This document shows positions 13,198-49,171 of a stretch of 64,000 bases of DNA, in pieces. Within the stretch, counting starts at the first letter, position 1. The number at the start of each line of letters is the position of its first letter. The notes under the pieces are model-generated. The model did no database searches, had not been told where the DNA came from, and saw only the letters and a list, made by a program, of their open reading frames with translations. Source of the stretch: a virus (lineage: Duplodnaviria > Caudoviricetes); the IMG/VR virus record IMGVR_UViG_3300044535_000374, positions 3,212-67,211 of that record; one strand, 5' to 3'. A program made the translations under genes and the position numbers.

Positions 13198-13227
13198 CTT
13201 AATATTTACCAAAAAAAACCTAAGAAA

Positions 13228-14154
13228 CTATTTTTCAGACTTAAGTCTATCGTAGAATCTTTGTCCATCTCCTTCCTTGAAACAGAACTTAACCAAATGG
13301 TCAATTGTGCTAATTCCAGAAGGGATTGTAGCTATTAGAGAACGAGTCTCAGACCAATGAACCTGGCCTAAAACAATAGACTCAGTGATTTTACCACTAG
13401 CAAAAGCTCTCTTAATCAATGCAAACGCTTTTGTTGTAGGATTATTATATGATTTCAAGAATACATCTGGCTTATTTTCAGCTACAGCTACATATTCTAC
13501 ACGAATCTCATCTTCATCCTTTTCAATACCCTGAGCGTTAACACTTGTAATACCTAAGTATTCAGCATGCTCCATCATTGTTTCATCAGATGCAGAAAGC
13601 GCTACTTTCATAGCCTCATGCTTGGTTTTAACTGATTCTATTTTCTTCTTGCTCATAGCCTCAAAGTTCATCAACTCGTAAGTTGGTTGAACATTCTCGT
13701 CTCTGTTCTCGTTATTAATGCATCTATTACTAATAGTCAAGAACTTAACAAGCATAGTATCAGAAGATGGTACATACATGTATCCATCCATAAATCCGAT
13801 ATTAGGCCTTTTGTTTACAACATTCTCAGGCAAAGAATCTTGCTCGTCAGCCCATAATGTGTTTACGCCAGGCAAGTATCTTACAGCTCTTTTCATTCCT
13901 GTTTTTTCGTCATACACAATATCTGTGTTTGCTACCATGAAACGAGGAGGGAATTGACGCTTATCACTTGGAGAGGCGTTTGTAATTAACCTAAAAACAT
14001 AAGTCTTAGGTTCTTCCTTTTTTACTTCTTTTTTCTTTACGATTGTGGCTTCTTCTACTGCGACTGCAGACAAAGCCTGTTCGGTTGTTGGTTCAGATTG
14101 GTCAATAATATCGCCATTCTCATCCAAAACCTTTTTGGTTTTTGATAGTGCCAT
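13228..14154 (-). CDS. Conserved protein downstream of the major capsid gene
   Basis: 308 aa; RAVRY...WADEQ...IGFMDG motifs; crAss-like synteny. Confidence 0.6.
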   Translation of the reverse strand: MALSKTKKVLDENGDIIDQSEPTTEQALSAVAVEEATIVKKKEVKKEEPKTYVFRLITNASPSDKRQFPPRFMVANTDIVYDEKTGMKRAVRYLPGVNTLWADEQDSLPENVVNKRPNIGFMDGYMYVPSSDTMLVKFLTISNRCINNENRDENVQPTYELMNFEAMSKKKIESVKTKHEAMKVALSASDETMMEHAEYLGITSVNAQGIEKDEDEIRVEYVAVAENKPDVFLKSYNNPTTKAFALIKRAFASGKITESIVLGQVHWSETRSLIATIPSGISTIDHLVKFCFKEGDGQRFYDRLKSEK

Positions 14155-14170
14155 GTTTTATCCTTTTAGG

Positions 14171-14178
14171 CAAAGATA
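14171..14178 (-). promoter_or_regulatory. -7 promoter element TATCTTTG
   Basis: Upstream of ATG 14154, immediately after a terminator. Confidence 0.65.
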
Positions 14179-14190
14179 GGTATTTTAATT

Positions 14191-14217
14191 AAAAAAGCCC
14201 TGTAGAAACAGGGCTCG
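14191..14217 (-). terminator. Rho-independent terminator (identical copy at 49118-49144)
   Basis: AGCCCTGT-TTCT-ACAGGGCT followed by T-run. Confidence 0.8.
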
Positions 14218-14286
14218 TGGACAATTTAAATGAAAGTGAAAACCTAAGCACAACAAAAATAACCCCCAGTAATCAATTTACCAAAT

Positions 14287-14315
14287 AAAAAAAGCCCCCC
14301 AGAGAACTGGAGGGC
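14287..14315 (-). terminator. Rho-independent terminator after the major capsid gene
   Basis: GCCCTCCAG-TTCT-CTGGGGGGC followed by T-run. Confidence 0.8.
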
Positions 14316-14345
14316 CTTACATTGGGATTTAAAACTATAACACTA

Positions 14346-15695
14346 CTACTTCTTAACTACTAAGAATTGGTTAGCTGCGAACATTTGTAATCCGCAATAA
14401 CCCATGTGGTGTACATTTAATTCCATTTTGCTAGATGTAGGAACCTTAGCTAAAGCACCAGTTTCCCAAACCTTGATTTCTTTACCAGCTTCAACTTCAT
14501 TGCTTACTACACGTAAAGCAGGGATTTTGTCACCAGTTTGAGCATCACGACCATCTTTCATTGGAATTAACGCACCGAAGAAGTCATACTTGTTAGCATT
14601 GTTAGCTAAAGCTTGTCCGTAAACAGCTTCTGCGTTGAATGGTAAGTATTTCTTCAAGTGGAAAGTAACACCATCAATCTTGATTGAATCAAAACCGTAT
14701 TTGATAGCTACATCTTGAGAACCACCAACAGAAGCCCATTGGATAGCACCATTAGTGTACTTAGCAAATAAAGAATCATCAACTGCAGTTCTCAAGTAAG
14801 AATCCATTAAGAAATGGTACTCTTGAGCTCCACCATTGAAATCAATCTGACGAACTAAGTTATGGAAATCTTCAATACCGAAACCTGCAGTGTTACCAAC
14901 TGTATCATATTGATAAGTTTGGCCATCAGCTTCAATTTGAGGAATTAAACCTTTAGAACCTACAGTACCTGCGATGTTATTAGCATCAGAACCGAAGATT
15001 AACTTGAACTCCTTGTTGTTCATGAAACGTCTTACAGCCTCATCTAAACCTTTGTAAGTGTAGAAAGAACCACCTGGGAAATCCAAGTAAATTTCTTCAA
15101 TCTTAGCACGGTCTGTGATTTTGTAGTCTTCACGAATTTCAGTTGTTGTGAAAAGCTTCTTCTCAGTTAAGTTTGCAATTGTATCTGCAGCATCAGATGC
15201 TTCACCAGCTTCTGTAACACCACGGAACAATAAAACTTCACCTGCAGCCAAAGTAGAACTTGCATTCTTTAAAGGAACGATAGTTGCAGTGTGTGCACCT
15301 GAAGTACCTTTGTTTACTGCTGTAATTTTGTACTGAACTCCAGAGCTAGCAGCTTCAACAACCTCACCTACACGAATAGGAGATTGAGCACCACTGTTGT
15401 AGTGAGAACCTGCAGTTAAAGTTACAGTTACTCCTGTATTAGTAACAGAAGTAGTGGTAGATGCAGTAATCTTTGCAGAAGAATGCAATTTACCGTAAGA
15501 CTCAAAGTGGAAAAATTCACGAGAAGGAACTACTGCTTTCAAACCTACCATCTCTAATAATTGAGTGTAGTTTTGGTTGCCATACTTCTCAACAAATTTT
15601 TCAAAATATTGAGGCTTCAAAAGTGACAAGTCACTTACAAACTGGCGACCTACGCCATTTGTTAGCTGTACACCAGCTGGTTGATTAATAGCCAT
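14346..15695 (-). CDS. Major capsid protein (crAss-like)
   Basis: Likely start MAINQPAG at 15695 after an A-rich leader; 449 aa; EKYGNQ, F...ES.GKLH, GSKGL, GFDS motifs; strong codon bias; follows portal and scaffold. Confidence 0.85.
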   Translation of the reverse strand: MAINQPAGVQLTNGVGRQFVSDLSLLKPQYFEKFVEKYGNQNYTQLLEMVGLKAVVPSREFFHFESYGKLHSSAKITASTTTSVTNTGVTVTLTAGSHYNSGAQSPIRVGEVVEAASSGVQYKITAVNKGTSGAHTATIVPLKNASSTLAAGEVLLFRGVTEAGEASDAADTIANLTEKKLFTTTEIREDYKITDRAKIEEIYLDFPGGSFYTYKGLDEAVRRFMNNKEFKLIFGSDANNIAGTVGSKGLIPQIEADGQTYQYDTVGNTAGFGIEDFHNLVRQIDFNGGAQEYHFLMDSYLRTAVDDSLFAKYTNGAIQWASVGGSQDVAIKYGFDSIKIDGVTFHLKKYLPFNAEAVYGQALANNANKYDFFGALIPMKDGRDAQTGDKIPALRVVSNEVEAGKEIKVWETGALAKVPTSSKMELNVHHMGYCGLQMFAANQFLVVKK

Positions 15696-15849
15696 TTTTA
15701 TTTGACATTTTTGTTTTAAAAAAATAGAACATTCCTGAGAATTGAACTCATGGTGTGCCAAAGCACAAATACCAATAATGTTGTGATGATGTTGTTGACC
15801 GCACTTGGCCTGTAAGAACTTAGCGCACTGCTAAATAAAAAATCTAACA

Positions 15850-15857
15850 CAAAGATA
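15850..15857 (-). promoter_or_regulatory. -7 promoter of the major capsid gene (about 150 nt leader)
   Basis: TATCTTTG between a terminator and the capsid gene. Confidence 0.65.
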
Positions 15858-15887
15858 TATATATTTTTTTAATTGTTTACAATAAAC

Positions 15888-15915
15888 AAGAAACCCCTAC
15901 TTTTTAGGTAGGGGT
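15888..15915 (-). terminator. Rho-independent terminator
   Basis: Stem ACCCCTAC/GTAGGGGT followed by TTCTTGTTT. Confidence 0.7.
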
Positions 15916-15947
15916 CAAACCAAAGATACTATCTAAGGTGGGGTGCA

Positions 15948-22054: not shown

Positions 22055-22334
22055 TTAATGGTTTTCTAGAAGCATGTGACTTATCCTTAGCTTCATCTCC
22101 AGTAAGTGCAAACTCTGTGCGAAGCCATTTCATATTCTCAGCAATGTACTTACACTCTACCATGGCTTTCATAAGCCTGTCAAATGACTTGTCTTCTTTA
22201 TCTGAGAAGTTGATGTCAGCTCCGTCAATAGCTTTAGTAAGCTCATTGAGTTTCTTGTTTAATGCGTAGTACATGCCTACGATACCATCTTGTCTGTAGA
22301 GACTAAGCTCTTCTTCTAAATTATATTTGCTCAT
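22029..22334 (-). CDS. Hypothetical helical protein, terminase small subunit candidate
   Basis: 101 aa, close upstream of terL; call is positional only. Confidence 0.4.
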   Translation of the reverse strand: MSKYNLEEELSLYRQDGIVGMYYALNKKLNELTKAIDGADINFSDKEDKSFDRLMKAMVECKYIAENMKWLRTEFALTGDEAKDKSHASRKPLIETLTRNA

Positions 22335-22893
22335 TGTGTAATGCTAATATGTCTTCTTCTTTTAATCTAATTGCGGTTCCGTGTACTCCATCAACAGCAT
22401 AAGGTATTGCGTAGTCGCTGTATCTATATGCAACTACCCTTTGCCCAGCTTTGAACTTATCACAACCCTTGGGGGTCTTGACAATCTCAAAGATGTTGTC
22501 ATAAACCTCTGTGGGCACGTTATCTGGTATATGCATAAACTTTGACTCAATTCTTGGCTTGTTGATTCTTTTGATGAGATAGTGATTATCAAAGGGTATC
22601 GGTTCTCCATTGTCCATGTAGAAGTATATGAAAGGCCCATCTATTAAAAATATTTTATCGTCTATCTCATTGTCTTGAGTAGTAGCACGATGGTTAAAAA
22701 TAACTTCGGTACCTTTTGGTACGCCCTGAAAGCTTTCTAATAAAATTCCATTTGTAGACTCTTTGACTTTACTATCCCAAGAAAAGTCAGTAGCTAGGTG
22801 TAATTCAATATCCCCAAAAGGTGTGCTTATTTTTTTCTTAGCCTTTGCTTCTGGGTCTACCAACACCAATGCCTTGCCGTGTAGTATGTTCAT
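22321..22893 (-). CDS. GroES-like fold protein
   Basis: Likely start MNILHG at 22893; duplicated KGTEVIF / KAGQRVV strands; similar genes occur near terL in crAss-like phages. Confidence 0.5.
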   Translation of the reverse strand: MNILHGKALVLVDPEAKAKKKISTPFGDIELHLATDFSWDSKVKESTNGILLESFQGVPKGTEVIFNHRATTQDNEIDDKIFLIDGPFIYFYMDNGEPIPFDNHYLIKRINKPRIESKFMHIPDNVPTEVYDNIFEIVKTPKGCDKFKAGQRVVAYRYSDYAIPYAVDGVHGTAIRLKEEDILALHNEQI

Positions 22894-22911
22894 TATCCCT
22901 TTGTTTAAAAG

Positions 22912-22919
22912 CAAAGTTA
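22912..22919 (-). promoter_or_regulatory. -7 promoter element TAACTTTG
   Basis: 18 nt upstream of ATG 22893. Confidence 0.6.
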
Positions 22920-22926
22920 GCGAACT

Positions 22927-23361
22927 TTATCCTAAGTTGTGCATGAAGTATAACATTTGTCTGCCACCATATGCGTACTCTGGGCCGTATAACTTAAACC
23001 CACATGATATTAGATTGTTTACACTATTGTAGTTATCTGGTGTAGTATATGTGATTACAATTCTAGATATCTCTCTAGCTCTCTTAAGTCTTAGTCGTAT
23101 CATCCTCTTCTGCATACCCCTGCCTCTTAACTTAGGTGATACCCATGCTCTGTTGAATATACAGATGCCTTCTGTATATATAGAACCACAGTATGCAATA
23201 ATCTCATTTTTATTGTTTACAGACACCCACCATTCCCTATTTTCATGGAATTCATTACCACATCCTTTAAAGCTAGGCGTAGTCTTATCTAGCACCTGCA
23301 AGGAGTCGTAGAGGCCTTTGTAAATTACTTTACCGAAACTAAAAATCTTAAATAGGTGCAT
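22927..23361 (-). CDS. GNAT family acetyltransferase
   Basis: Acetyl-CoA motif A (RAWVSPKLRGRGM) and N..S...L...GF motif B. Confidence 0.85.
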   Translation of the reverse strand: MHLFKIFSFGKVIYKGLYDSLQVLDKTTPSFKGCGNEFHENREWWVSVNNKNEIIAYCGSIYTEGICIFNRAWVSPKLRGRGMQKRMIRLRLKRAREISRIVITYTTPDNYNSVNNLISCGFKLYGPEYAYGGRQMLYFMHNLG

Positions 23362-23365
23362 GGCG

Positions 23366-23373
23366 CAAAGCTA
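23366..23373 (-). promoter_or_regulatory. -7 promoter element TAGCTTTG (probably leaderless transcript)
   Basis: Only 4 nt before ATG 23361. Confidence 0.55.
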
Positions 23374-23421
23374 CAAAATTGCATGAATTTCATTTCACTA
23401 GGAAATTGCAAGAATGCAATT

Positions 23422-23450
23422 AAAAAACCCCTCCTTTGCGGTGGAGGGGC
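23422..23450 (-). terminator. Rho-independent terminator
   Basis: GCCCCTCC...GGAGGGGT followed by T-run. Confidence 0.75.
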
Positions 23451-23483
23451 CTAACCAAAAATCAATATGAAAACCAGAAAAAT

Positions 23484-23792
23484 CTACCATAGAACTCTCC
23501 TAGCCCAATAGTTGGCGGAGAATATATCATTTCTTGTCAAGGCACCTGACTTGTTTCTAATACCACCAGAACGAGCTAAGTAGTTTCTTCTTCTTTTTTC
23601 GTTCTTGTGCTTAGTAAAATCGCTCATGCCTCTATATCCAAATCCAATCTTTTTAACCTTGTTGCCTTTTCTAGCAAGTACCACCTTTTTCTTTGGGCTA
23701 CCAGCAGGCGCATTCTTTGGCTTATTAAAGCCAGGGAATCTCTCCCCTCTATACATGATTCCTCCATTAACTCTTGTTACGCCTGGTATCAT
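23484..23792 (-). CDS. Basic protein, DUF5754-like
   Basis: KKIGFG..GMSDFTKHK.EKRR.NY..R and SANYWARRVLW motifs. Confidence 0.6.
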   Translation of the reverse strand: MIPGVTRVNGGIMYRGERFPGFNKPKNAPAGSPKKKVVLARKGNKVKKIGFGYRGMSDFTKHKNEKRRRNYLARSGGIRNKSGALTRNDIFSANYWARRVLW

Positions 23793-23793
23793 G

Positions 23794-23937
23794 CTATTTC
23801 CATTTACCTGTTTTCAACTTACTATAATCAGCCTTACTAACAGTAGACTTGGACTTAGGCTTTGATGTACCTGCCTTTTTCTTAGCGTTAATGTTATTAA
23901 CCAAACTATTTTTTACTCCTAGCTTGTTTACTTTCAT
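23794..23937 (-). CDS. Small basic protein (47 aa, not in the ORF track)
   Basis: MKVNKLGVKNSLVNNINAKKKAGTSKPKSKSTVSKADYSKLKTGKWK; fills the gap exactly. Confidence 0.6.
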   Translation of the reverse strand: MKVNKLGVKNSLVNNINAKKKAGTSKPKSKSTVSKADYSKLKTGKWK

Positions 23938-24121
23938 TCTTTTGTTTTTTAATATTAGGCTTAACCTTTTCTACCTTTTTAGCTTTAGGCTTCTTTACTG
24001 GTTTGAATTCAGTCCATTCACCTTTCTCCTCAATAGGAGCTGGTTCTTCAATCTTAACCTCTTCCTTGGCCTTTATAATCTTTAGGCTTAGGAGAATGTT
24101 TGTTATAAGTTTTTTTAGCAT
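23906..24121 (-). CDS. Small K/E/P-rich protein
   Basis: ATG 24121 (MLKKLITNILLSLKII...); overlaps both neighbours. Confidence 0.45.
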   Translation of the reverse strand: MLKKLITNILLSLKIIKAKEEVKIEEPAPIEEKGEWTEFKPVKKPKAKKVEKVKPNIKKQKNESKQARSKK

Positions 24122-24182
24122 AACCTGTTTTTCGTTTACCAAATGTTATTTTCTGAGATGTTGTTCCTTTTACCTTTGCCAT
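24054..24182 (-). CDS. Small basic peptide ending YKGQGRG (42 aa, not in the ORF track)
   Basis: MAKVKGTTSQKITFGKRKTGYAKKTYNKHSPKPKDYKGQGRG; Y(R/K)GQG termini are common in small phage proteins. Confidence 0.6.
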   Translation of the reverse strand: MAKVKGTTSQKITFGKRKTGYAKKTYNKHSPKPKDYKGQGRG

Positions 24183-24184
24183 TT

Positions 24185-24547
24185 CTATTTATTCATAAAT
24201 TTTTTCATTTCAGCCATCTTTCTCTCACCTCTTCTTGGAGATATTTCCTTGTCTACCTCTTTATACTTTACACCAAGTAATGGCTTGAAGTTCTTTTTCA
24301 TTGAGTACTCTGGCCCATCTTCAGTTTCAATCTTAGTAAATGTTTTAACCTTTTGCTCACCATTCTTTTCTTTTGTTTTAGAATAGTAAGATGCATCTAA
24401 ATCTTCATCCTCTACAGCTTCTGTTAGTGTGCTAGTTGTTTTCTTGCCATCAACAGTTTTTTCATCCATCTCAGTTTTTGACTTACTCATTCCAGCAGAC
24501 TTCTTTGAATCTATTGCCTCTTTGATTTTTTTTAAATTTACTGCCAT
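24185..24547 (-). CDS. Hypothetical charged protein
   Basis: 120 aa ORF with an upstream promoter at 24576. Confidence 0.55.
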   Translation of the reverse strand: MAVNLKKIKEAIDSKKSAGMSKSKTEMDEKTVDGKKTTSTLTEAVEDEDLDASYYSKTKEKNGEQKVKTFTKIETEDGPEYSMKKNFKPLLGVKYKEVDKEISPRRGERKMAEMKKFMNK

Positions 24548-24575
24548 GCTAATACTTATTTATGATTGTATTATA

Positions 24576-24583
24576 CAAAAATA
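24576..24583 (-). promoter_or_regulatory. -7 promoter element TATTTTTG
   Basis: Intergenic, upstream of ATG 24547. Confidence 0.45.
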
Positions 24584-24589
24584 ATGAAT

Positions 24590-25048
24590 TTATAATAGCC
24601 TCAGTCTATTCCCATTAAAATAAACATTTGGGTTCACCCAAAACTCTATAGTAGAGCCTAGCTTACGTGCTAATATCTTCTCAGCTACCAGCTCTGTGAT
24701 TGCTGTTTTTATCGTAGACTCAGACTTGATTCCGCAGTGTTCCATTAAGTCAGGTGGGTTAAGTATAGTCACCTTAGCTAATGGCCTTATGTGACACATA
24801 GAGTAAAGTACAATCTTTAGAGATGCTGGGCTAAGGTTCATGAATGCCTTAAAGCTGTCTTGGAATAACTTAGTGTAAGTCATTGAGTCGTGTAGCTGCA
24901 TCTTATTCTTAGGTATCCTCCTGACTGCGTACAGGTCATCCCCATCTGTTAGTTGTAATATCTCCTCACTTTCTTTTGTTACGAAATGGCGTTCTTCTAG
25001 ACCTAGCACCTTAAATGGTGAGTCTAGGTAGGCTTCATGGTTTCTCAT
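24590..25048 (-). CDS. RepL-like winged-HTH protein
   Basis: YTKLF, HTH segment STIKTAITELV, C-terminal FWVNPNVYFNGNR typical of RepL-like proteins. Confidence 0.65.
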   Translation of the reverse strand: MRNHEAYLDSPFKVLGLEERHFVTKESEEILQLTDGDDLYAVRRIPKNKMQLHDSMTYTKLFQDSFKAFMNLSPASLKIVLYSMCHIRPLAKVTILNPPDLMEHCGIKSESTIKTAITELVAEKILARKLGSTIEFWVNPNVYFNGNRLRLL

Positions 25049-25050
25049 AC

Positions 25051-25509
25051 TTATATTTTAAAAAAATTAATATACTTCTTGTCTACGTAATAGAATAGTA
25101 AATCTTTTTGCTTTACCCTATCAAAGGTTCTCCTAAGCTCCCATTTGTCAAATGTTTCATTTCTTATTGATATGTAGTGTGTCTTATCTTTATTTAGTAT
25201 TATATGCACATCTGGTTTAACTATTTTTGATTGATAGCCAGGGTATGAGTTTACTATTACATCCTTATAAGGCCATGTTGTAGTAAATGGTGTATTTATA
25301 TTCTTTATTTCTAGTTTAATCTCTTCCCCATCCTTTCTTAAGAACATATCTCCTTGGTCTGCATATTCTGAAAATGCCCCCACATTATATGGAGCTATAA
25401 CTAGTTCAGGTATATCTACCTCATACCCTTTGCTTTTAAAAAAATCCCCCATAAAAACCACTGCTTCCTGAGACTTTAATAAAGCTTTTTTGAAATTATA
25501 TTCTTCCAT
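25051..25509 (-). CDS. Putative PD-(D/E)XK nuclease-fold protein
   Basis: Likely start MEEYNF at 25509; E...DQGD...LEIK motif; promoter TAGATTTG at 25533-25540. Confidence 0.5.
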   Translation of the reverse strand: MEEYNFKKALLKSQEAVVFMGDFFKSKGYEVDIPELVIAPYNVGAFSEYADQGDMFLRKDGEEIKLEIKNINTPFTTTWPYKDVIVNSYPGYQSKIVKPDVHIILNKDKTHYISIRNETFDKWELRRTFDRVKQKDLLFYYVDKKYINFFKI

Positions 25510-25563
25510 ATATTTGTGCTTAGATTGAGTAACAAATCTAGTTATTATACCCTCATAAAACAA

Positions 25564-26570
25564 ATTTTCCTTTTTATTTTTAAAAAAATTGAGAAACAGT
25601 TATTGATTGTCAAAGAGTTATGAGGTTTCCTTCTTATATATATTACATAGTATTTCTCATAGTATAGCAATAGCTTTACTTAAGTCCAGTTTAGTAAAGT
25701 AATAACTGGACATTCGTATATCAATTCGTATAATTACGAATATATACGTATCGTAGTATTACGATTTACACGTGCAAAAGTGCAGTGTTGGGCGGCCCGC
25801 CCTATTAGGGGGCGGCCGACCCTGGCCCAGCAACTTGCAGTTCTGCAGACTGGGTGGGTCAATCTATGCCTTTGCAATCTGCACACACATTTGCCCATTC
25901 TAGCCTATTAAGAATAACCCCATCAATCTGATAGCGTAGGGTTCCAGTATTAATGACAGGCCATGCCTAACCTGTGGGAAACTGCTTTGCCTGAGTGGGT
26001 AGGTCAATCCTAATGTAGGTTAGTAACCTAATTCATTATCAATCAATGTGTTATAGTGTTATCAGATGCCTATGTAAGCCTGTATGCGTAACATTACCCT
26101 TTCCCCATGTGTATCTGTGTGCTATGATTCTGTCATGCTTACCTATCTCCTGTGTATTTTGTCCCTGTGTAATAATCCGAAATGACCTTTGCCTGTCTTC
26201 CTGTGTCTCACCTGTATGTGACTAAGTTCTTAGTTATAACTATTCTCTCCTGTGTTTTCTCCTGTATGCATTGTGTCCTGTTTCTTTCTATTGTCTGTTA
26301 ACAATCACATACTATATATGTCCCTGATTTTGTCCTGTGTTTTTCTTCCGCAAATATTTCCGCAATCGTTTGCAATTATCCCTGTTTGCTGTCCTGATAA
26401 CTTTTTTTTAAATTTTTTTTCTGTTGCATCTGATTGATTCCCATTGTGTTATCTGTGTCTAAAAAAATATCCTGAAAATATTTGGGTGCAATTGATGTTT
26501 GTATACATACATATCATATCATTGTGGTGCCATAGTGCAACAAATCAATCAAAAACTAACAATCATTAGT
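25564..26570. other. Non-coding divergence region between late (-) and early (+) arms; candidate genome terminus or packaging region
   Basis: About 1 kb without a convincing ORF; contains palindromes, a GC-rich hairpin at 25790-25822 and a CCTGT array. Confidence 0.6.
26079..26396 (+). repeat. Array of CCTGT/CCTGA pentamers
   Basis: CCTGT at 26079, 26149, 26164, 26192, 26200, 26211, 26249, 26261, 26277, 26334, 26381; CCTGA at 26323 and 26393. Confidence 0.8.
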
Positions 26571-27174: not shown

Positions 27175-27202
27175 TTTAACCAATAACCAAAAATTCACAG
27201 CC

Positions 27203-29359
27203 ATGAATCAAGTTAAAAAACAACCTAGAAAATTCTCTGTATTGACACCTGTAAATGAGAGAAGCAGAAACAAATTTTTATTACCATTGGATGCATTCTC
27301 TAACAAGTACATCCAAAAGTTTGTAGTCATGACATCAAGTTCAATGACAAGTGATGCAGTCTATGATTACGAGAGCGTTTACTCATCAGGAACGAATAGT
27401 GAAAGCAGATATGCTAACATGTTCAGACTAGCTAAAATGAACAGCGGAAGAATAATTGTGCCACAATTGTATTCAACACATTCAGGTGGAAGCAGAATAA
27501 GATTAAAGCTAAATGATACAGAAATTCATATCAGCAGTTCACTATTTGATTTGCTAGTAAATGAATTCGGTATGAAGTATTACATTGATGAAAACAGAGA
27601 GCATAACGGATACAAGATTAAAGTTATTGTTATCAGTGATGACATGATTGCACCTGATTTAACAGAGTCATTGGTGGAAGTGGGAAGACTTGTAAAGGTT
27701 ACAGATGACAGCCAAATTTGGGGAACAGATACATTGCTAGGTTATCATTATTCAGCATGGCATCCAAAGATTGCATCTAATTTCACAAAGTACATGGACA
27801 AGACTTTAGGTGCAGTTAACTTTGGATTTGAAGCAGAGAAGCAAGACTACACATTCAGGGACAGAGAGAATGCTATTAAATTAGCTTTTGAGACAGGATT
27901 TAAGAAAGAGAGAGATGGCAGTTTAGGTGATGGAGGATTTGAATTGATTTCACCTGTATTACCATTGAACAATGATGCAGTCATCAATGAAGTACTTGCA
28001 CCTGTTAGGGATATATTGGATGCGGAAACTAGCGACAGATGTGGTGGTCACATCAATGTATCAATCAATGGTGAAAATTCTAGAGACATCCTTAAGAAAG
28101 TGAAAGGAAGTTTACCAATATTCTATTCAATCTATGAGAAGCGTTTAAACAACAGCTATTGCCAAGCACAGCAGTTTGGCACATACCTTCGCTCACCTAG
28201 AAAGTACCAATCATTCTATGTGAAGAACAATGAGATTCTTGAATTCAGAATATTCCCTGCAATCAAGAGCAACACCATCCTTAAGAACAGAATTGATTTG
28301 ATGCGCATAGTATTGAATGACCTGTATGGTAAGACACATAACAAGGTTATCCTTGAGATGGCTAAAAAGAATTCTAAGTTATACAATTTCATGTTGAATG
28401 TAGTGTGCAATGGCGACATGGATAAGTTCAAAAACAAGTTCAAGACATTCATCACATTATCAGCTAAGTACAAATGTGGTATCGTTACAATTAACACGAT
28501 TAAGAAAGTTGAGCAGATGATGAGCATGAGTATCATTACTCCTACAGAAACTACACAGGAACCTACAGAGACTACACAAGCACCTAGAGAAAGAGTATTC
28601 CATGTAGACTTACCTGATACGACATCCACATGGGTAACAGATGCAGTGACTGAATTATCAAACGATGATTCATACAGACAGGAGCGTTCTAACGATGTGA
28701 GAGATGGCAGTATTGATGGTGTGAACGAGGATGTTATTGTTACATCATTCGCTCAGAATGTAGAAAGCTACAGAGGACTATCATCAAGCGCTAGAACAGA
28801 ATTGAATACAGCATTCCTTTCAGATGAAATTTATGTAAACAATATGAGAGCGACAAATGAACAGCTATGTCAATTCTTTGCGCCAAACAGCATGGTATCA
28901 TTAGGCACACCATGTGAATACAGCAGTAACTTTAGTATCATGGTGAAGAAAGCATTAAATACTATTGGTGGTGTGATTAGCTCTGTATTAAACTATGAGA
29001 CATTGCCTGTATCGGTTATTAATTCACAGACAGAAAGATTGTTTGATTCATGCAGAGACAATGATATGCAAGTATGTCAAACATATTCTCAGAGCGAGAT
29101 GTCATTTTTCAACAGAATATTTGCAATGCTAATTACCACATCTAGATTCACAGATACAACAAACATGTGTTTCAGGGCTGAATTTAAGCTATCTACTTTG
29201 TCATCTGAAAGGTACTACATGAACTTTATCAGACACGAGGATGGCACATATATATGCGCTCTAGCTAAGAGACTAGATGGTAATAGATTCGTGTATATAT
29301 TCAATGAACATGAATTGAGTCTAAACTTATTAACTGATTCATCTCAAAATCCTTTTTAA
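27203..29359 (+). CDS. Putative amidoligase (COOH-NH2 ligase, Amidoligase_2-like) with extra N- and C-terminal regions
   Basis: FGFEAEK, ERDGSL...GFELISP, CGGHINVS, LEFRIF motifs; likely start MNQVKK at 27203. Confidence 0.82.
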   Translation: MNQVKKQPRKFSVLTPVNERSRNKFLLPLDAFSNKYIQKFVVMTSSSMTSDAVYDYESVYSSGTNSESRYANMFRLAKMNSGRIIVPQLYSTHSGGSRIRLKLNDTEIHISSSLFDLLVNEFGMKYYIDENREHNGYKIKVIVISDDMIAPDLTESLVEVGRLVKVTDDSQIWGTDTLLGYHYSAWHPKIASNFTKYMDKTLGAVNFGFEAEKQDYTFRDRENAIKLAFETGFKKERDGSLGDGGFELISPVLPLNNDAVINEVLAPVRDILDAETSDRCGGHINVSINGENSRDILKKVKGSLPIFYSIYEKRLNNSYCQAQQFGTYLRSPRKYQSFYVKNNEILEFRIFPAIKSNTILKNRIDLMRIVLNDLYGKTHNKVILEMAKKNSKLYNFMLNVVCNGDMDKFKNKFKTFITLSAKYKCGIVTINTIKKVEQMMSMSIITPTETTQEPTETTQAPRERVFHVDLPDTTSTWVTDAVTELSNDDSYRQERSNDVRDGSIDGVNEDVIVTSFAQNVESYRGLSSSARTELNTAFLSDEIYVNNMRATNEQLCQFFAPNSMVSLGTPCEYSSNFSIMVKKALNTIGGVISSVLNYETLPVSVINSQTERLFDSCRDNDMQVCQTYSQSEMSFFNRIFAMLITTSRFTDTTNMCFRAEFKLSTLSSERYYMNFIRHEDGTYICALAKRLDGNRFVYIFNEHELSLNLLTDSSQNPF

Positions 29360-29475: not shown

Positions 29476-30483
29476 ATGTGTACATTCTTTGTAAAAAAAC
29501 CTAAGCAAGTCTTAAAGCAAGACCATTTCAACACCATCATAGAAAACAATCCTCAAGGATTCGGATTCGTATACACCACAGGTGACAGGCTAGTCATCGT
29601 TAAGTCAGCAAAGCCTGATGCAAAGCAATTATGGAATAAGTATCAGGATGCTGTTGCTAAATATCCTCAGTCACATTTCATCGGTCATGGCAGGATTGCC
29701 ACAGGCAGTAATGTAGACTATGAGAATACACACCCATTTCTTATCAACAAAGGTTTGGTATTCGTTCACAATGGTATCATCAGACAATTCCCATCAACAG
29801 CCAAGCGCAGTGACACATACCAATACATGGAGCAGGTATTACGCAAGTTACCTAGAGACTTTTACAAACAGAAGGCTATCATGGATTTGATAGGCAGAGA
29901 CATTGTAGGTAGCAAGTTTGCATTCCTGACTATTGATAATAAGGTATACATCGTAAACGAACATGCATGTGTTACAGATACAGAGACAGGCGTATTATTC
30001 AGCAACAGCAACTACAAGCCTAGCGAATGGTTAGATTATGGTGGTACTAAGATTCACAAGTACGATACCAAAAAGACTAACAAGTACAGCTATGATTGGG
30101 ACAAGGGAGCTACACAAAGCAAGTTAGACTTTCATATTGACAGAGACTCAGCAGAAATTAAACATCAGGCAGGTGACTACATCCATTGCCTAGATTGTGA
30201 TGATTGGGTATACAAGACATCATACGAGAAGAAGTTTGATTGTTGCACATCATGTGCTAAGGATTACGGATACCTTACATTGATGGGTACAGAGACAGGA
30301 CAATTTGAAAAAGAAGTTGAAGGATTGTACCATTGCGATGAATGTAATGTAAATGTGGCATCACACAGATACGATGGATTCCATCTATGTAGTGAATGCG
30401 AGAAGATGTACATAGGTGCTAAGCCTATATACTCAGAGATAGAGGAGTATAACAATTCATTTGATAACTATGAAAACATATAA
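29476..30483 (+). CDS. Class II glutamine amidotransferase with C-terminal Cys-rich (Zn-binding) repeats
   Basis: Cys2 nucleophile (MC), NPQGFG, HGRIAT, NTHPF, HNGII, SDT; four CxxC motifs in the tail. Confidence 0.88.
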   Translation: MCTFFVKKPKQVLKQDHFNTIIENNPQGFGFVYTTGDRLVIVKSAKPDAKQLWNKYQDAVAKYPQSHFIGHGRIATGSNVDYENTHPFLINKGLVFVHNGIIRQFPSTAKRSDTYQYMEQVLRKLPRDFYKQKAIMDLIGRDIVGSKFAFLTIDNKVYIVNEHACVTDTETGVLFSNSNYKPSEWLDYGGTKIHKYDTKKTNKYSYDWDKGATQSKLDFHIDRDSAEIKHQAGDYIHCLDCDDWVYKTSYEKKFDCCTSCAKDYGYLTLMGTETGQFEKEVEGLYHCDECNVNVASHRYDGFHLCSECEKMYIGAKPIYSEIEEYNNSFDNYENI

Positions 30484-33198: not shown

Positions 33199-33819
33199 AT
33201 GGTTTTAAATTCAAACATACCAAGTTTTAAAGGTGTAGTAAGGAAATCTTACTTTACGAAAGAAGATGCGGACATGAACGAGTATTACAATGTGTATGTA
33301 TTTGGCATCCAATCATGTGGAGGTAAGATACTTACATTCCATGTGTTAACTGATTCAGGCATGTTAAGGAGTAGAGTTCCAATATCAGAGATATACACTA
33401 GAGTTCCCACAAACGACATCCCATTCAACTACAAACAGCTATGGGATTGCTTTAGCGAGAATGTATCTGTTATTGAGTATGATTTCTTAGCTTATCACAG
33501 GTGTCAAGTAGTTTTAAGGGATGGCAGTAAGGTATGGGCTACATACATATTGACTATTGATTGGTATAACAATCCTTACAGCGATGAACCTTCTGACTAC
33601 AAATGCGGTCACTTACTTGAGTCTGATGATGGGTATCTCATGTGCATGCCTAACAACAGAATATTTTGGAAGGATAGCAATTGGGTTACAAAGCAGTTAC
33701 CTGAAGATTTAAAACAATTTAAGGTTGACACTAACCTAGATTCCGTTGAGAATCAATCAGATAAATGGATAGTAGAGGATACGAATTCCTTTTACTACGA
33801 TATAATAGAAAACAAATAA
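33199..33819 (+). CDS. Conserved phage protein of unknown function
   Basis: LNSNIP, QLWDCFS, YILTIDW, PNNRI motifs resembling a widespread aquatic phage family. Confidence 0.6.
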   Translation: MVLNSNIPSFKGVVRKSYFTKEDADMNEYYNVYVFGIQSCGGKILTFHVLTDSGMLRSRVPISEIYTRVPTNDIPFNYKQLWDCFSENVSVIEYDFLAYHRCQVVLRDGSKVWATYILTIDWYNNPYSDEPSDYKCGHLLESDDGYLMCMPNNRIFWKDSNWVTKQLPEDLKQFKVDTNLDSVENQSDKWIVEDTNSFYYDIIENK

Positions 33820-33822
33820 CCT

Positions 33823-34023
33823 ATGACACCAAAAGAAAAAGCAAAAGAATTATTTGATAAATATTTTGAGGTAACAAATAATTATTATCAAGCTAAAGAA
33901 TGTGCATTAATAGCAGTAGATGAAATATTAGATTTAAAGCATATAGTAACATTAAGAAGGAATATGCACGAAATGGAATTAGAATATTGGATGGAAGTTA
34001 AACAAGAAATAGAAAACCTATAA
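33823..34023 (+). CDS. Small MTPKEKAKEL-type hypothetical protein
   Basis: MTPKEKAKEL...AKECALIAVDEI...YW.EVKQEIE.L. Confidence 0.65.
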   Translation: MTPKEKAKELFDKYFEVTNNYYQAKECALIAVDEILDLKHIVTLRRNMHEMELEYWMEVKQEIENL

Positions 34024-34039
34024 CCAAAACAAATAACCT

Positions 34040-34267
34040 ATGGATTGCGAAAATGGATGGAAAGGAAATTGCTGTTGTAATTGCACAAGACAAATACCAT
34101 TATTTAAACACCCAATGAATAAAGGAGAAGGTAAAGGAAGTATTTCAGAAAGTATGGGGTTTGCTTGTACTGCATTTTGGGATATGGATAAGACAGAAGG
34201 AATGATATTTTTTGATAACCCACATGGAATATGCGAAATGCATAATAGAAAAAACCAAAATAAATAA
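34040..34267 (+). CDS. Small Cys-rich hypothetical protein
   Basis: CCCNC, HP.N, HGICE. Confidence 0.6.
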   Translation: MDCENGWKGNCCCNCTRQIPLFKHPMNKGEGKGSISESMGFACTAFWDMDKTEGMIFFDNPHGICEMHNRKNQNK

Positions 34268-34270
34268 CAT

Positions 34271-34600
34271 ATGGAAAAGTCGTACTATGCTATTATACCT
34301 GCATCTGTCAGGTATGATAAGAAGCTAACGCCCAATTCTAAGCTATTGTATGGGGAAATCACAGCCCTATGCAATGAGAAAGGCTATTGTTGGGCAAATA
34401 ACACATACTTTAGCACATTATACAAGGTATCTAACAGAACCATCACAAATTGGATTAACGAACTAAAAGGAGCAGGTCATATCATTGTAAACTATGAGAG
34501 GGCAGATGTAGAAGGATACTCAAAAAGGTATATTATGTTGGCTGATACAAGCATCCATGCTAAGCCAATGGGTAGGAAAAAATCTTCTAGTACCCCCTGA
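34271..34600 (+). CDS. HTH replication initiator / replisome organizer (N-terminal domain only)
   Basis: YYAIIPA.VRYD..L....KLLYGEITAL....GYCWA.N.YF..LY....TI..W HTH_36-type motif; followed by iterons. Confidence 0.8.
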   Translation: MEKSYYAIIPASVRYDKKLTPNSKLLYGEITALCNEKGYCWANNTYFSTLYKVSNRTITNWINELKGAGHIIVNYERADVEGYSKRYIMLADTSIHAKPMGRKKSSSTP

Positions 34601-34731
34601 AAATAATTTCTATACCCCCATGAAGAAATTTTCTATACCCCCCTGAAAAAAACTTCATACCCCCATGAAAAAATTTTCTACCATAATAATACAATGAATA
34701 ATACAAGGAATAATACATTAATAATAATACA
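34585..34731 (+). repeat. Putative replication origin: about 23 bp iterons plus AT-rich AATAATACA repeats
   Basis: TTCTATACCCCC(A/C)TGAA-like units at 34585, 34608, 34631, 34654 and a partial one at 34676; four AATAATACA copies at 34685-34731. Confidence 0.75.
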
Positions 34732-34740
34732 TACTATACT

Positions 34741-39801: not shown

Positions 39802-40179
39802 ATGTCTAGATATGACACAATTAGCATACCTACAGAATGGCTACCTGAAATAATTAAGAAGGATGAATTTTGGGATAGCATTTCTGAATGGCAGACCAAG
39901 GATTTGAATAACGAGTATGATATATACATATTCAATCCTAAGTCAAAGCAAATGTTCATGCAGGATTATGAATTAGAATTGGTAGATAAGCCACATTCTA
40001 TATTTGGTAAGACCATGGAGATGCGTTTAACTAGCAAGATAAAGCAGTTGTTTGATGATACTATATCTTGTTCGTCTATGCCAGGCACACATTTTTACCA
40101 AATAAAGTTGAGTATCGTAAAGGGAGTATTGACAGATATTAAGATAATAAAAATATTCAATTTTAAAAGAGAATTATAA
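39802..40179 (+). CDS. Hypothetical protein
   Basis: 125 aa, YD...WQTKDL motif. Confidence 0.55.
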   Translation: MSRYDTISIPTEWLPEIIKKDEFWDSISEWQTKDLNNEYDIYIFNPKSKQMFMQDYELELVDKPHSIFGKTMEMRLTSKIKQLFDDTISCSSMPGTHFYQIKLSIVKGVLTDIKIIKIFNFKREL

Positions 40180-40409
40180 TGGCAAAAGAAGGATTTACAC
40201 AAGGCTCATTAAAGAAAGCTTACCCTAGCTTGTATGATTCAATGATGGAAACAAAGGGTGAAAGGGCTCCTGAAGGATGTTACAATACTTATGTAAACTT
40301 TTTCAGAGAGTATACAACAGCTAGTGGGGAAAGAAGAAAGGTCTCACTACAATCTATAATAGACTATCTAGAAAAATCAGGATACTCTATTAAGATAACA
40401 GCAAAGTAA
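40179..40409 (+). CDS. Hypothetical protein
   Basis: 76 aa ORF. Confidence 0.55.
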   Translation: MAKEGFTQGSLKKAYPSLYDSMMETKGERAPEGCYNTYVNFFREYTTASGERRKVSLQSIIDYLEKSGYSIKITAK

Positions 40410-45671: not shown

Positions 45672-45688
45672 TTTTTGACTTATGTTTT

Positions 45689-46353: not shown

Positions 46354-46356
46354 ATA

Positions 46357-46656: not shown

Positions 46657-46662
46657 TGTATT

Positions 46663-47016
46663 TTATTTTATAATTATTGGGGTTCTAGTTTCTGAGCCAT
46701 TTATATTCATCAAAATTAAGTCATATGTTCCACTTGATAATCCAGTTAGGTTATCCTGCTTTATTAATAAGCCATCTATTGAGCTTACCCCATAAGATTT
46801 GTATACTTTTCCACTCATATCCTTGATTGTAACATTATACTTGATAGATGGTTGTAGGTTAAAACTCATTGTAATTTGACCTAATGTAGGTACAGGAGAC
46901 ACATTAACATACCCCTGTTTTTCAGGTGTTTTAGCTTGTTGCTCTGGATAATATTGTATTTTTTTGCACGATACTACAACCAAAGCCAAGCACATGATGA
47001 TACTGATTCTTTTCAT
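46663..47016 (-). CDS. Lipoprotein consisting of a T9SS type A C-terminal sorting-like domain
   Basis: Lipobox VVVSC; VSPVP (YPNP-like), IKDMSGK, LTGLSSGTY.L, terminal IIIK. Confidence 0.7.
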   Translation of the reverse strand: MKRISIIMCLALVVVSCKKIQYYPEQQAKTPEKQGYVNVSPVPTLGQITMSFNLQPSIKYNVTIKDMSGKVYKSYGVSSIDGLLIKQDNLTGLSSGTYDLILMNINGSETRTPIIIK

Positions 47017-48662
47017 TATTTAAAATTATTTATACCGATTAAACGAATCTGTGCAGTGTTTAACTTAATCCCAACTTGATTACCTCTGTTATCAGACGCA
47101 TCCATGTTATCTGTTACCCATATATGTGTATTTAGGTCAGTTCCAGGAGCCAATGATTTAAATCTAATCGTGAAAGGAGTGATATTACCAGTAATACCCT
47201 CTTTCAATGTTTTATCTATTCCACCAAACTTAACATAGCCATTATCGTTTGTATAGAAGTTTAACCATGATGGGTTTGTATTAGACTTTATCTCTTGCAA
47301 CTGAATTTTAGTTGCATCATAAGAAAACTCAAACTGAAGCCCACATATGCTTAACCCATCTGTGTTTATACTTACAGGGATAGATATATTGTCAGATTCA
47401 ACTACAGCATTTTCTAAACTAACAGATACTGCCTTTTTTGCAATTGGAGTATTTACCAATGAGAATGATTGTATTGTCCCATCTGTGGCAACCACCTGTG
47501 AGCTATGGCTTCTATTAATATCACCTGCAATTAGGTAGTTTAAATCTAATACTTGATTGGTAGTAGTAGTACGGAAATAGATAAAATTCTGAACTGGTAA
47601 AGTATCTTTACTAAAGTCAGCTCTTTTATACGTGTATACATTAGGAACCATTGTCAGTGTGTTAGCCACATGAGCTAATATCAAGTATGGGTCGGCAGCA
47701 TCAAAAGACCCATTATAGTTAGCATCAGCAGCTAGCCAAGCAGCACCTGTTTTTAGGTTAGTTTTATTAAAAGTACCATTTAGGTTAACAGAACCAAACT
47801 CATTTAAGGCGGCTGTAGCATCTGATACCGTAATAGCATTTTTAGCTATACTAGCGATACTATCTATACCAACTGATACTTTGTATGTTCTATTTGATGC
47901 AAGCTCCGTAGAAGCTTTAAAAACACCGTTTACATCAGGGTATAATAAAGTAGATATTCCTGAAGCGGAGTCGGTAAACTTGATATTAGTCTGAACAGAA
48001 GGACTTTTATATATATTACCAGTAACCAAAGTATTAGCATTAGCGTCTAGTGTTATGAACGTGCTTTTAGGTAGAGGCATATACGTATTAATATAAGCAC
48101 CATCTGATTTCCAGCCAGATACAAAGTTCATATACAAACTATCATAAGCTGTTCCAGCTGTAGTTGCATTTACTCTAATACGTATCCTGATATATTTCCC
48201 ATTACGTAGATTGCTATTTGAAGTAACTGTAGTATAGATTCTCTGGATAGCATTATTGCTAGTTGCTGAATACGTATAGTTAGCATAGTTATAGTTCTGT
48301 GAACCATTTGTTGTTGTGTTTTGAGCTGTTCTTTGATAGGTAAAGCCTGGATGGAAGTTATTCTGAATACTCATTGTAGCACCTGTAGGCATAGCACTGC
48401 TGTCTCCACTAAAACTAGTTACACCTAATATTGTAAATGTTCTATAGTTATACTGAAAGTCAAAGTATAGCGTTCTGGTAGAAGATAGTTCCTCTTTATA
48501 CATAACCACCATATCAACAGTGTCCCCCTTTAATATAGACGTGTCCTTTATATTCTTGGTTATATTAGACTTTTCTAAATATATTGTAGGAATCTGCGCA
48601 TTTGTCACAAATATTCCAAAAATAGTGACAAGACTAAGGATTAATTTTCTCAATGAGTTCAT
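47016..48662 (-). CDS. Secreted cohesin-like / dockerin-like multidomain protein
   Basis: Signal ending TNA-Q; ITVSDA, ADANYNGSFDAAD and GDINRSHS EF-hand-like loops; C-terminal IPVSI...GLQFEFSYD..K cohesin-like domain. Confidence 0.65.
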   Translation of the reverse strand: MNSLRKLILSLVTIFGIFVTNAQIPTIYLEKSNITKNIKDTSILKGDTVDMVVMYKEELSSTRTLYFDFQYNYRTFTILGVTSFSGDSSAMPTGATMSIQNNFHPGFTYQRTAQNTTTNGSQNYNYANYTYSATSNNAIQRIYTTVTSNSNLRNGKYIRIRIRVNATTAGTAYDSLYMNFVSGWKSDGAYINTYMPLPKSTFITLDANANTLVTGNIYKSPSVQTNIKFTDSASGISTLLYPDVNGVFKASTELASNRTYKVSVGIDSIASIAKNAITVSDATAALNEFGSVNLNGTFNKTNLKTGAAWLAADANYNGSFDAADPYLILAHVANTLTMVPNVYTYKRADFSKDTLPVQNFIYFRTTTTNQVLDLNYLIAGDINRSHSSQVVATDGTIQSFSLVNTPIAKKAVSVSLENAVVESDNISIPVSINTDGLSICGLQFEFSYDATKIQLQEIKSNTNPSWLNFYTNDNGYVKFGGIDKTLKEGITGNITPFTIRFKSLAPGTDLNTHIWVTDNMDASDNRGNQVGIKLNTAQIRLIGINNFK

Positions 48663-49098
48663 AGCAAGCCTTTTTGATTGCAGTTGTTAAATTTTGTTGA
48701 TTGAACTTGCCGTCTGTTCCGACAAGTATTGTTGATGTTGACACCTCAGATGCGCTACCTTCTACCAAGATTGGCTTGCTTTTACTTCCGTCTTTGGAAA
48801 TATAACCCTTGATTCTTATCACGACATCTGTATTGTCTTTATGGAATACTGATAGATTGCTTTTAGTCTTCACTACATCCATATAAATCAACTCGGCAAA
48901 GATAATATTTTTAGATTTTGGGTTAATTGAGTATCCTTTCTCTTGGATTATCTCTTCAATGATATTAGCTACACCAAATTCTATCTTTCTATTACCTACC
49001 AAATCACCTAATTTAATGCTGTTTTGGACAGATATAGTCACATCTTGAGCCATACTAGATGTGCTCAATATTAACAATAAATATAATAAGTACTTCAT
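48634..49098 (-). CDS. Secreted CsgG-like paralogue (short)
   Basis: Signal ending SMA-Q; shares GVANI and FNQ....A.KKA motifs with 44955-45671. Confidence 0.55.
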   Translation of the reverse strand: MKYLLYLLLILSTSSMAQDVTISVQNSIKLGDLVGNRKIEFGVANIIEEIIQEKGYSINPKSKNIIFAELIYMDVVKTKSNLSVFHKDNTDVVIRIKGYISKDGSKSKPILVEGSASEVSTSTILVGTDGKFNQQNLTTAIKKACYELIEKINP

Positions 49099-49102
49099 GA
49101 TG

Positions 49103-49110
49103 CAAAGGTA
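49103..49110 (-). promoter_or_regulatory. -7 promoter TACCTTTG of the envelope operon (probably leaderless)
   Basis: 4 nt before ATG 49098, directly after a terminator. Confidence 0.6.
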
Positions 49111-49117
49111 CTAAAAT

Positions 49118-49144
49118 AAAAAAGCCCTGTAGAAACAGGGCTCG
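49118..49144 (-). terminator. Rho-independent terminator identical to 14191-14217
   Basis: AGCCCTGT-TTCT-ACAGGGCT followed by T-run. Confidence 0.8.
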
Positions 49145-49171
49145 GAAATAACCATATGTATGTCAGTCGTA

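Follow-up and report, generated by a model that had tools for sequence, protein, structure and literature searches.

Do the spacers before late-gene terminators of a Flavobacteriia-type phage silence its early genes?

Can the 3' ends of late phage messages carry antisense copies of the translation starts of early genes, and so silence them in trans? The question is raised by a stretch of viral DNA (Duplodnaviria; Caudoviricetes) of 64,000 nucleotides (nt), here called the window, which comprises bases 3212–67211 of one 67,211-nt contig (IMG/VR record IMGVR_UViG_3300044535_000374). Between the stop codons of several of its minus-strand genes, regarded as late, and the hairpins that follow lie short spacers which, read on the plus strand, look like the leaders of plus-strand early genes. 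An earlier note on this DNA proposed that the late 3' untranslated regions (UTRs) at 23452, 49146, 13212, and 14239 form a network of trans-antisense RNAs that shuts off early translation. The strings on which this proposal was built all stand where it had placed them; as a mechanism for this genome it is not borne out, given pairing energies at chance level, a lack of conservation at three of the four sites, and leader words that are generic. We infer, with about an even chance of being right, that the spacers have no antisense role in the window.

Most of the genome of a 67-kb phage with a Flavobacteriia-type host lies in the window. Its terminase matched 88 records at 28–33% identity, belonging to phages of Flavobacterium (68), Cellulophaga (15), Tenacibaculum (2), Maribacter (1), and no named host (2), and a megablast search against cultured phages gave no DNA-level match. 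Structural genes (portal, large terminase, capsid-like protein, and tail fibres) occupy the minus strand at 1–25563 and 41820–64000, and early-type genes, including those for replication (a helix-turn-helix (HTH) replication initiator, primase/helicase, and single-stranded DNA-binding protein (SSB)), occupy the plus strand at about 26.2–41.8 kb. TAnnTTTG boxes stand 10–25 nt upstream of many start codons in intergenic DNA of both strands; full TTTG-N17-22-TAnnTTTG promoters on the minus strand number only five, and no Shine-Dalgarno (SD) sites were seen in the intergenic regions of the window. TAnnTTTG promoters combined with SD-less starts are the Bacteroidetes style as portrayed in portions of two papers (PMC7366714; PMC6847099), the second of which describes Bacteroidetes as devoid of SD sites and their start regions as rich in A, this base standing at -3, -6, and -11 to -14.

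Six gaps were examined. Five of them follow a minus-strand stop codon and end at the strong intrinsic terminator of the parental transcript; 14217–14290 is the exception.

13197–13176, 14318–14291, 15916–15892, 23452–23425, and 49143–49122, minus strand: intrinsic terminators.
23453–23483, minus strand: spacer U23, after the DUF5754 gene.
49144–49171, minus strand: spacer U49, whose plus-strand reading contains AAATAACCATATG.
13198–13227, minus strand: spacer U13, after the gene 13228–14154; contains CTTAGGTTTT and TTTGGTAAAT.
14319–14345, minus strand: spacer U14a, after the major-capsid-like gene; no start-region likeness, and used as a conservation control.
14217–14290, minus strand: U14b, between two terminators and with its own promoter; holds the cited 14239–14250.
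15917–15947, minus strand: spacer U15, with a late-type -7 box, TATCTTTGG, directly before the hairpin 15916–15892.

The likeness to early leaders consists of a few short words. TAACCAAAAAT is found at 23452–23462 and 27184–27194, and the AACCAAAA common to many leaders lies on the plus strand at 23453, 27185, 31998, 34022, 34253, 38289, 40415, and 40449, with four more copies on the minus strand. AAATAACCATATG at 49146 has its counterparts in AAATAACCTATG (33814 and 34031) and AAATAACATATG (34262), and AAACCTAAG occurs only at 13216, 14240, and 29497. The early regions concerned are the following.

27185..27205, plus strand: start of the amidoligase gene, with a AACCAAAA leader and ATG 27203; stands for six such early leaders.
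33814..34273, plus strand: three tandem early starts of the form AAATAAC(C)(T/A)ATG.
29491..29508, plus strand: codons 6–11 of a class-II glutamine amidotransferase-like gene, matched by 13212–13224 and 14239–14250.

The large "amidoligase" open reading frame (ORF) is listed from ATG 27146, overlapping the preceding ORF; with the AACCAAAA leader 18 nt 5' of it, ATG 27203 is likely the true start.

Matches of this length are what shuffled sequence yields. When the plus-strand reading of each spacer was compared with 31 early start windows, using 3000 dinucleotide shuffles each, the longest exact match gave P=0.61, 0.52, 0.48, 0.32, 0.16, and 0.54 for the six spacers. The best RNAduplex site among 32 start windows (300 shuffles) gave P=0.79, 0.12, 0.03, 0.43, 0.23, and 0.04, the first value being that of U23, and cofolding energies (ddG) with the hairpin retained and self-structure allowed (40 shuffles) gave P=0.40, 0.025, 0/40, 0.43, 0.35, and 0.35. 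A scan of the five window spacers against all opposite-strand RNA, with the own locus excluded (40 shuffles), returned P=0.61, 0.17, 0.17, 0.78, and 0.51. No spacer was significant after correction for six spacers, and the best partners of U13 and U15 differed from those that had been named for them. The claim that the matches exceed chance thus gave way in both the exact-match test (P at least 0.16 in six of six) and the whole-genome scan (P=0.17–0.78 in five of five). Pairing energies no better than those of shuffled spacers had been named beforehand as the outcome that would count against the antisense proposal, and this was the outcome for its flagship, 23452–23474: the best start-region site of U23 reaches -15.3 kcal/mol (P=0.79), and its core scores -12.0 kcal/mol against early starts, with shuffles at -11.96. 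Complementarity to a target beyond chance was absent from the window and present only in the sister phages G005 and G012.

Composition would account for this. The SD-less genes start behind A/C-rich unstructured leaders, with AACCAAAA 11–19 nt upstream or with AAATAAC(C)NATG, and the late stop-to-hairpin gaps would be ordinary short 3' spacers that are U/G-rich in the transcript and A/C-rich on the other strand. Leader matches of 8–13 nt then arise at the shuffled rate because the spacers read A/C-rich on the other strand. The pairs at 49146, 13212, and 14239, as well as the AACCAAAA matches, may stem from composition and word usage and have nothing to do with regulation, and the spacers would simply end transcripts, the hairpin protecting the 3' end.

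The words themselves also turned out to be other than marks of early genes, as which they had been read. Within the window, AACCAAAA lies 11–19 nt before the ATG of 6/29 early starts (leaders at 27185, 31998, 34022, 34253, 38289, and 40415) vs 1/39 late starts. In related phages the same words head late genes: of about 30 related lineages, 9 have TAnnTTTG-N4-5-AACCAAAA(A)...ATG at the start of the late gene that follows the capsid gene, and others have AAAATAACCATTATG there, the second word cited in the earlier note. They also head host-type genes. The mirrored U23 motif, AACCAAAAA(N)TCAA(N1-3)ATGAA, was searched in one genome per prokaryote species; among the first 80 of at least 120 matches, with a real start defined as an ORF of at least 60 amino acids (aa) with a nearby upstream in-frame stop and phyla assigned by hand from titles, it opened a real gene in 19/40 matches from Bacteroidota vs 1/40 from other phyla. 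These matches start unrelated genes, and no single target family for a host target was found among them; in viral contigs, 23/80 matches open ORFs of at least 50 aa. Judged by its distribution, AACCAAAA...ATG is a generic Bacteroidota start region and not early-specific in the family. Because of the 19/40 vs 1/40 real starts, the plus-strand reading of U23 is best described as the mirror of a generic host-type start, and it fits the A-rich determinants at -3, -6, and -11 to -14 given for Flavobacterium johnsoniae in parts of PMC6847099. On an unrelated 96-kb viral contig (L197:6484-6540), the coding strand has a GC-rich hairpin directly beside AACCAAAAAATCAAAATG, with a 45-aa ORF opening there; this hairpin-leader junction matches the plus strand at window 23425–23469.

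Of the sites cited, only U23 is conserved.

23484..23792, minus strand: DUF5754 gene, 102 aa, the last in the leftward operon 25563→23484 (Pfam PF19058, E 1.5e-11).
23419..23452, minus strand: U23 terminator, the hairpin 23452–23425 followed by a U run.

The DUF5754 gene has 237 relatives in viral contigs, and seven distinct lineages could be compared across the spacer, made up of the related genomes G001–G004 (65–80% DNA identity) and metagenome contigs. The U23 core, about 23453–23474, reads TTCATATTGATTTTTGGTT as RNA and AACCAAAAATCAATATGAA on the plus strand, the mirror of a start region. TTCAT(A/G)TT(T)(T)GATT(T)TTT(T)GGTT is kept in 7/7 lineages, amid bases just after the stop, a hairpin sequence, and third codon positions (52% identity) that all vary; the hairpin shows double changes at 5/8 stem pairs across the seven lineages, and the core is single-stranded in the predicted fold of the 3' fragment. 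This alignment argues that the block 23453–23474 is under selection. The control U14a, which holds no start mirror, is 85–89% identical to G002/G003 vs 61–62% at third codon positions and is thus as conserved as U23. Since it is, the conservation of U23 is read most simply as a terminator-proximal constraint on the 3' end, not as proof of antisense action; termination efficiency, 3'-end stability, or contact with a protein may impose it.

Conservation had been expected of the cited late sites in general, and three of the four (49146, 13212, and 14239) do not show it. U49 is identical in a relative of 97% identity and replaced by unrelated sequence in two relatives of 80% identity. U13 is not alignable in G003 and has an extra gene in its place in G002, and a search for relatives with the protein of 13228–14154 gave no match; U15, which had not been cited, is likewise poorly conserved. 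The site 14239–14250 belongs to a lineage-specific insertion spanning 14189–14290; neither G002 nor G003 nor any other capsid-gene relative compared (about 30 distinct sequences, 42 loci) has it. This insertion carries a full promoter, TTTG-N20-TATTTTTG (14285–14254), a transcript of about 40 nt, and a terminator at 14216–14195, by which architecture U14b is an independent inserted promoter-plus-terminator unit and not a 3' UTR. Its 5' end (GCTTAGGTTTT) has 12 nt of perfect complementarity to 29496–29507, codons 7–10 of the amidotransferase-like gene (P=0.16; the gene's Pfam GATase_4 match lies just below threshold), and U14b is a candidate small RNA (sRNA) of about 55–60 nt. The neighbouring terminator recurs elsewhere.

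49114..49144, minus strand: terminator-plus-promoter cassette whose hairpin and U run are identical to 14187–14217 (repeat family D14, 97%).

The same 26-nt hairpin and U run are found in a third, non-homologous place, the U23 site of the G001/G002 lineage (L100:2845-2870), and each copy has a TAnnTTTG box within about 10–20 nt downstream; the combination looks like a portable terminator-promoter cassette.

It is against this background that the full proposal of a trans-antisense network at 23452, 49146, 13212, and 14239 has to be judged, and we consider it very improbable. In its favour, the pooled mean complementarity of the spacers is in excess toward early and not late starts; U49 pairs best with the start of the replication initiator at 34271 (ddG -14.9 kcal/mol, P=0.025 with 40 shuffles); and U13 and U14b have two 10-mers in common, one of which recurs in the amidotransferase gene, with 9 shared 8-mers vs 2.5 in shuffles (P=0.01). 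The excess, as set out below, rests on one word pair and on leader words that are not early-specific in the family, the best-site tests fail correction for six spacers, and three of the four sites are unconserved or lie in a lineage-specific insertion. U49 gives P=0.12 in the best-site test and P=0.61 in the whole-genome scan, and the best site of U13, the start region of 32289 (-18.2 kcal/mol, P=0.03), gives way to P=0.51 in that scan.

The reading that the window spacers have no antisense role has several observations weighing against it. Most spacers are on average a little more complementary to early starts than their shuffles are, and consistently so, with per-spacer P=0.02–0.15 in one test of mean energy and 0.025–0.45 in another, and our own Fisher combination of these values gives about 0.001–0.004 for a statistic that was not chosen beforehand. 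TTCAT, the mirror of ATGAA, was counted by eye in 10/31 spacers of the family, several of them homologous, against a rough expectation, estimated not computed, of about 2/31; it is present on early and late strands. In the U23 core the mirror of ATG is kept in 7/7 lineages, and it ranks 78–141 of about 2610 non-annotated ATGs for start-likeness, a start-site weight matrix placing ATG 23467 in the top 3–5% of such ATGs and ATG 49156 only in the top 21–34%. The G001/G002 version of the core has a mean energy over 32 early starts that beats 300/300 shuffles. Finally, a late 3' spacer in G005, G012, and G020 unmistakably repeats, in antisense, 20–29 nt from the start of a small early gene.

The pooled excess can be followed to its source. 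It is absent against late starts and against windows inside early genes, and it sits in the six early leaders that hold ACCAAA (Fisher p=0.0045; the other 23 leaders, p=0.077), so that it traces to one word pair, TTTGGT in the spacers vs ACCAAA in 6/29 early leaders. In the late RNA sense TTTGGT occurs 6 times in 1509 nt of intergenic DNA vs 19 times in about 46 kb of coding DNA. This roughly 10-fold higher density of ACCAAA, in the plus reading, in late intergenic over late coding DNA agrees with another explanation, in which the words act on DNA: TTTGG(T) would be -33-type promoter words or their remnants, and the repeat of the sister phages an operator bound by a small early protein. Two of the six late intergenic TTTGGT words are indeed the -33 box of a full promoter (14285 and 49681), these being two of the five full-consensus promoters of the minus strand; U23, U13, and U15, by contrast, have no -7 box at promoter distance, and the hairpin directly follows. 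We regard an action on DNA as improbable.

When the window and seven further genomes were tested together (31 spacers vs all opposite-strand RNA, own locus excluded, 40 shuffles), only 2/31 spacers reached P<=0.05, and both are the same orthologous spacer, after the gene following the major capsid gene, in G005 and G012. For the G005 spacer (L437:14325-14356 = G005 54325-54356, minus strand) the partner is positions -16..+13 of a 78-aa early gene (L435:13245-13273), at -36.4 kcal/mol; its next-best site reaches -24.6, and among 9636 same-sense control windows the best reaches -25.5. The G012 spacer has its partner in -11..+16 of the homologous 90-aa early gene, at -31.1 kcal/mol. The plus-strand reading of the copy, TAACCAATGAAACCATATAACACAAAGCG, is invariant over 29 nt in seven contigs in which the hairpins and flanking gene ends differ. 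Beginning in the leader, it reaches the first codons; it has ATA in place of ATG, and this position forms a G-U pair in the duplex. Two positions co-vary between early and late copy, G and A standing at both loci in G005/G006 and A and G at both in G012/G017; G020 has A at both loci in the first position and A in the late copy at the second, before which its early slice ends. An operator would be compatible with the weak "transcriptional regulator" match of the copied gene in G005 (phrog_10808, E 0.004), with a third copy in G012 that lies in sense orientation in a late gene leader, and with three early-copy variants within the G005 subclade that are uncompensated in the late copy. An extent of -16..+13, which is that of a ribosome footprint reaching into the coding region, is atypical for an operator, as is the non-palindromic sequence, and the copy in the spacer runs antisense to those in the start regions in every case, its target lying on the opposite strand about 41 kb away. 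The window orthologue of the copied gene is 40179–40409; the window orthologue of the spacer is U13, unrelated in sequence, and no copy of the 40179 start region was found elsewhere in the window. From these comparisons the antisense mechanism is very likely real in kind in the sister phages, at a locus that the window phage lost or never had.

With that precedent, a narrower antisense function for U23 deserves a hearing: 23453–23474 would be a working anti-start RNA that pairs with AACCAAAA-type starts of phage or host and covers the 30S landing window, the other cited sites being chance and the long sister-phage copy acting likewise on one early gene. We think this possible, though doubtful. 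The retention of the block in seven lineages vs 52% synonymous identity, with an invariant mirrored ATG and a core predicted to be unpaired, is what such a function would require, and the sister pairing (-36.4/-31.1 kcal/mol on an orthologous early gene, invariant in seven loci) is a precedent for it in the family. TGGTT(A) adjoins the hairpin in U23, U49, and U15 and in the G005/G012 element, and the junction of block and hairpin, TGGTTA, is the same in U23 as in that element. The mean energy of the G001/G002 core, noted above, is joined by a top-3 energy of P=0.047, and pairing with start regions through an extended single-stranded seed is described for Bacteroides GibS in a part of PMC7366714. 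No target with extended pairing emerged, however, either in the window, where the best site anywhere has P=0.17, or in G001/G002, where the best site reaches -16.7 kcal/mol (P=0.15); predicted targets are not the same orthologue in two lineages, the window and G001/G002 having no shared orthologous best target; and U14a is equally conserved without a mirror. A pairing of 10–11 A-U-rich base pairs is also weak by the standard of known Bacteroides sRNAs, which need long seeds according to the portion of PMC7366714 that treats them. Finally, the spacer after an SSB-like early gene of G005 (L435:13911-13938, plus strand; TTTTTTCTGTTTTCATATTTTAGATTTT) is 19/20 identical to the first 20 nt of U23, and this look-alike, which stands on the early strand behind a different gene, has no target there (P=0.68). 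Because it follows an early gene, the U23 module is not tied to late genes.

Taken together, these observations leave room for a tentative generalization, in which phages of this family would place mirrors of start regions before terminators and use the protected 3' ends of abundant messages to silence chosen genes in trans. The 29-nt copy of G005/G012/G020, possibly aimed at a small early regulator-like gene, would be its clear case, a proposal that we advance with reserve. With similar hesitation, 23453–23474 might be placed beside it as a less specific member, directed at AACCAAAA-type starts of phage or host.

Other explanations of U23 found little to recommend them. A plus-strand micro-ORF behind the mirrored ATG was rejected, being 13–16 aa long, differing between lineages in frame relative to the late gene, and having no common sequence, and for an antisense transcript from the plus strand no TAnnTTTG promoter box was found in 22323–24170, the nearest upstream standing at 22322. 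RNAalifold proposed a long-range helix that would join the U23 core to codons some 70 nt upstream, with 87% pairing; it was likewise set aside, having only two double-change pairs and appearing in the single-sequence best fold of only 1/4 lineages. Nor was there a sign of pairing in cis with the start regions of the same operon (23792, 24142, 24547, 25048, and 25563), which are without AACCAAAA, 23792 standing outside the five best late targets. A second copy of the U23 mirror with up to three mismatches was not found in the window. Contigs from two metatranscriptome runs cover small parts of 22900–25600, including 23313–23463 and 23449–23719 in X1; they give no ends, strand, or level, may stem from DNA carry-over, and were used for no conclusion. 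Between the terminator 23452–23425 and the -7 box of a GNAT acetyltransferase gene, three TGCAAT/ATTGCA words (23362–23420, minus strand) stand in an inverted, operator-like arrangement that is conserved in the closest contigs, L095–L098.

Further features of the genome were noted in passing. The contig begins and ends with the same 127 nt, pointing to a circular assembly. A divergent control region of 688 nt (25564–26251) separates the genes read leftward from those read rightward and has locally GC-rich stretches (GGGCGGCCCGCCC...GGGGGCGGCCG) that are unusual in a genome of 35% GC. Directly 3' of the HTH replication-initiator gene and 5' of the primase/helicase gene, 34591–34740 holds three direct repeats of about 22 nt (TATACCCCC(A/C)TGAA(G/A)AAA...) followed by an AT-rich run of AATAATAC-like repeats, and these look like origin iterons. 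The stretch 5' of each of two adjacent late -7 boxes is covered by one copy of a 36-nt direct repeat of 89% identity (53454–53489 and 53821–53856); it resembles a late promoter that has been duplicated. A tRNA scan of the window found nothing, and Rfam covariance models, including Bacteroidota sRNA families such as GibS, gave no match at gathering score on either strand of the 64 kb.

If late 3' ends do copy early starts in order to silence them, they would represent a cheap and evolvable timing switch for Bacteroidota phages, whose hosts start translation without a Shine-Dalgarno pairing that could be blocked. To our knowledge, these hosts are without Hfq, no RNA chaperones are known there, and the timing of phage gene expression has hardly been studied. 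The sister pair offers a directly testable case: the copy is invariant over 29 nt, its target is defined, and two positions co-vary. For the window the lesson is the opposite: where a genome is AT-rich and SD-less, its U-rich 3' spacers and its A-rich leaders are mirrors by virtue of composition, and matches of 8–13 nt therefore carry no weight unless conservation and shuffle controls back them.

Non-coding and antisense RNAs of phages are already known, as passages of PMC10914365 relate. A literature search found no paper in which a late 3' UTR of a Bacteroidota phage copies the start region of an early gene in antisense. Regulatory sRNAs derived from 3' UTRs are established in bacteria, with CpxQ, SroC, and DapZ as examples; U23 (23453–23483) and the sister element resemble them in having a conserved single-stranded block just 5' of the parental terminator and variable bases after the stop, and differ in that the hosts are Bacteroidota and that the sister pairing involves a long copy of 20–29 nt, not a short seed. 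The icaR message of Staphylococcus aureus reportedly pairs its 5' and 3' UTRs within one mRNA, and it shares with U23 a 3' UTR that carries the mirror of a ribosome-binding region; in contrast to icaR, U23 mirrors neither the start of the gene that it follows nor those of the operon, and the sister target lies on the opposite strand some 41 kb off. T4-type phages contain mobile promoter/stem-loop cassettes (PeSL), to which the identical hairpin and promoter units at 14187–14217 and 49114–49144, with a third elsewhere in a related phage, may be compared, although the host promoter type differs and the mobility of the window cassette is suggested by its distribution only. The closest parallel in the host phylum is GibS of Bacteroides thetaiotaomicron, an AU-rich unstructured region of which pairs across the start codon of SD-less messages, as set out in the relevant part of PMC7366714. 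An AU-rich unstructured pairing region lying across an SD-less start, with an extended seed, would be common to GibS and the elements considered here, whereas GibS itself is encoded between genes, is transcribed from a promoter of its own, and has its seed at the 5' end.

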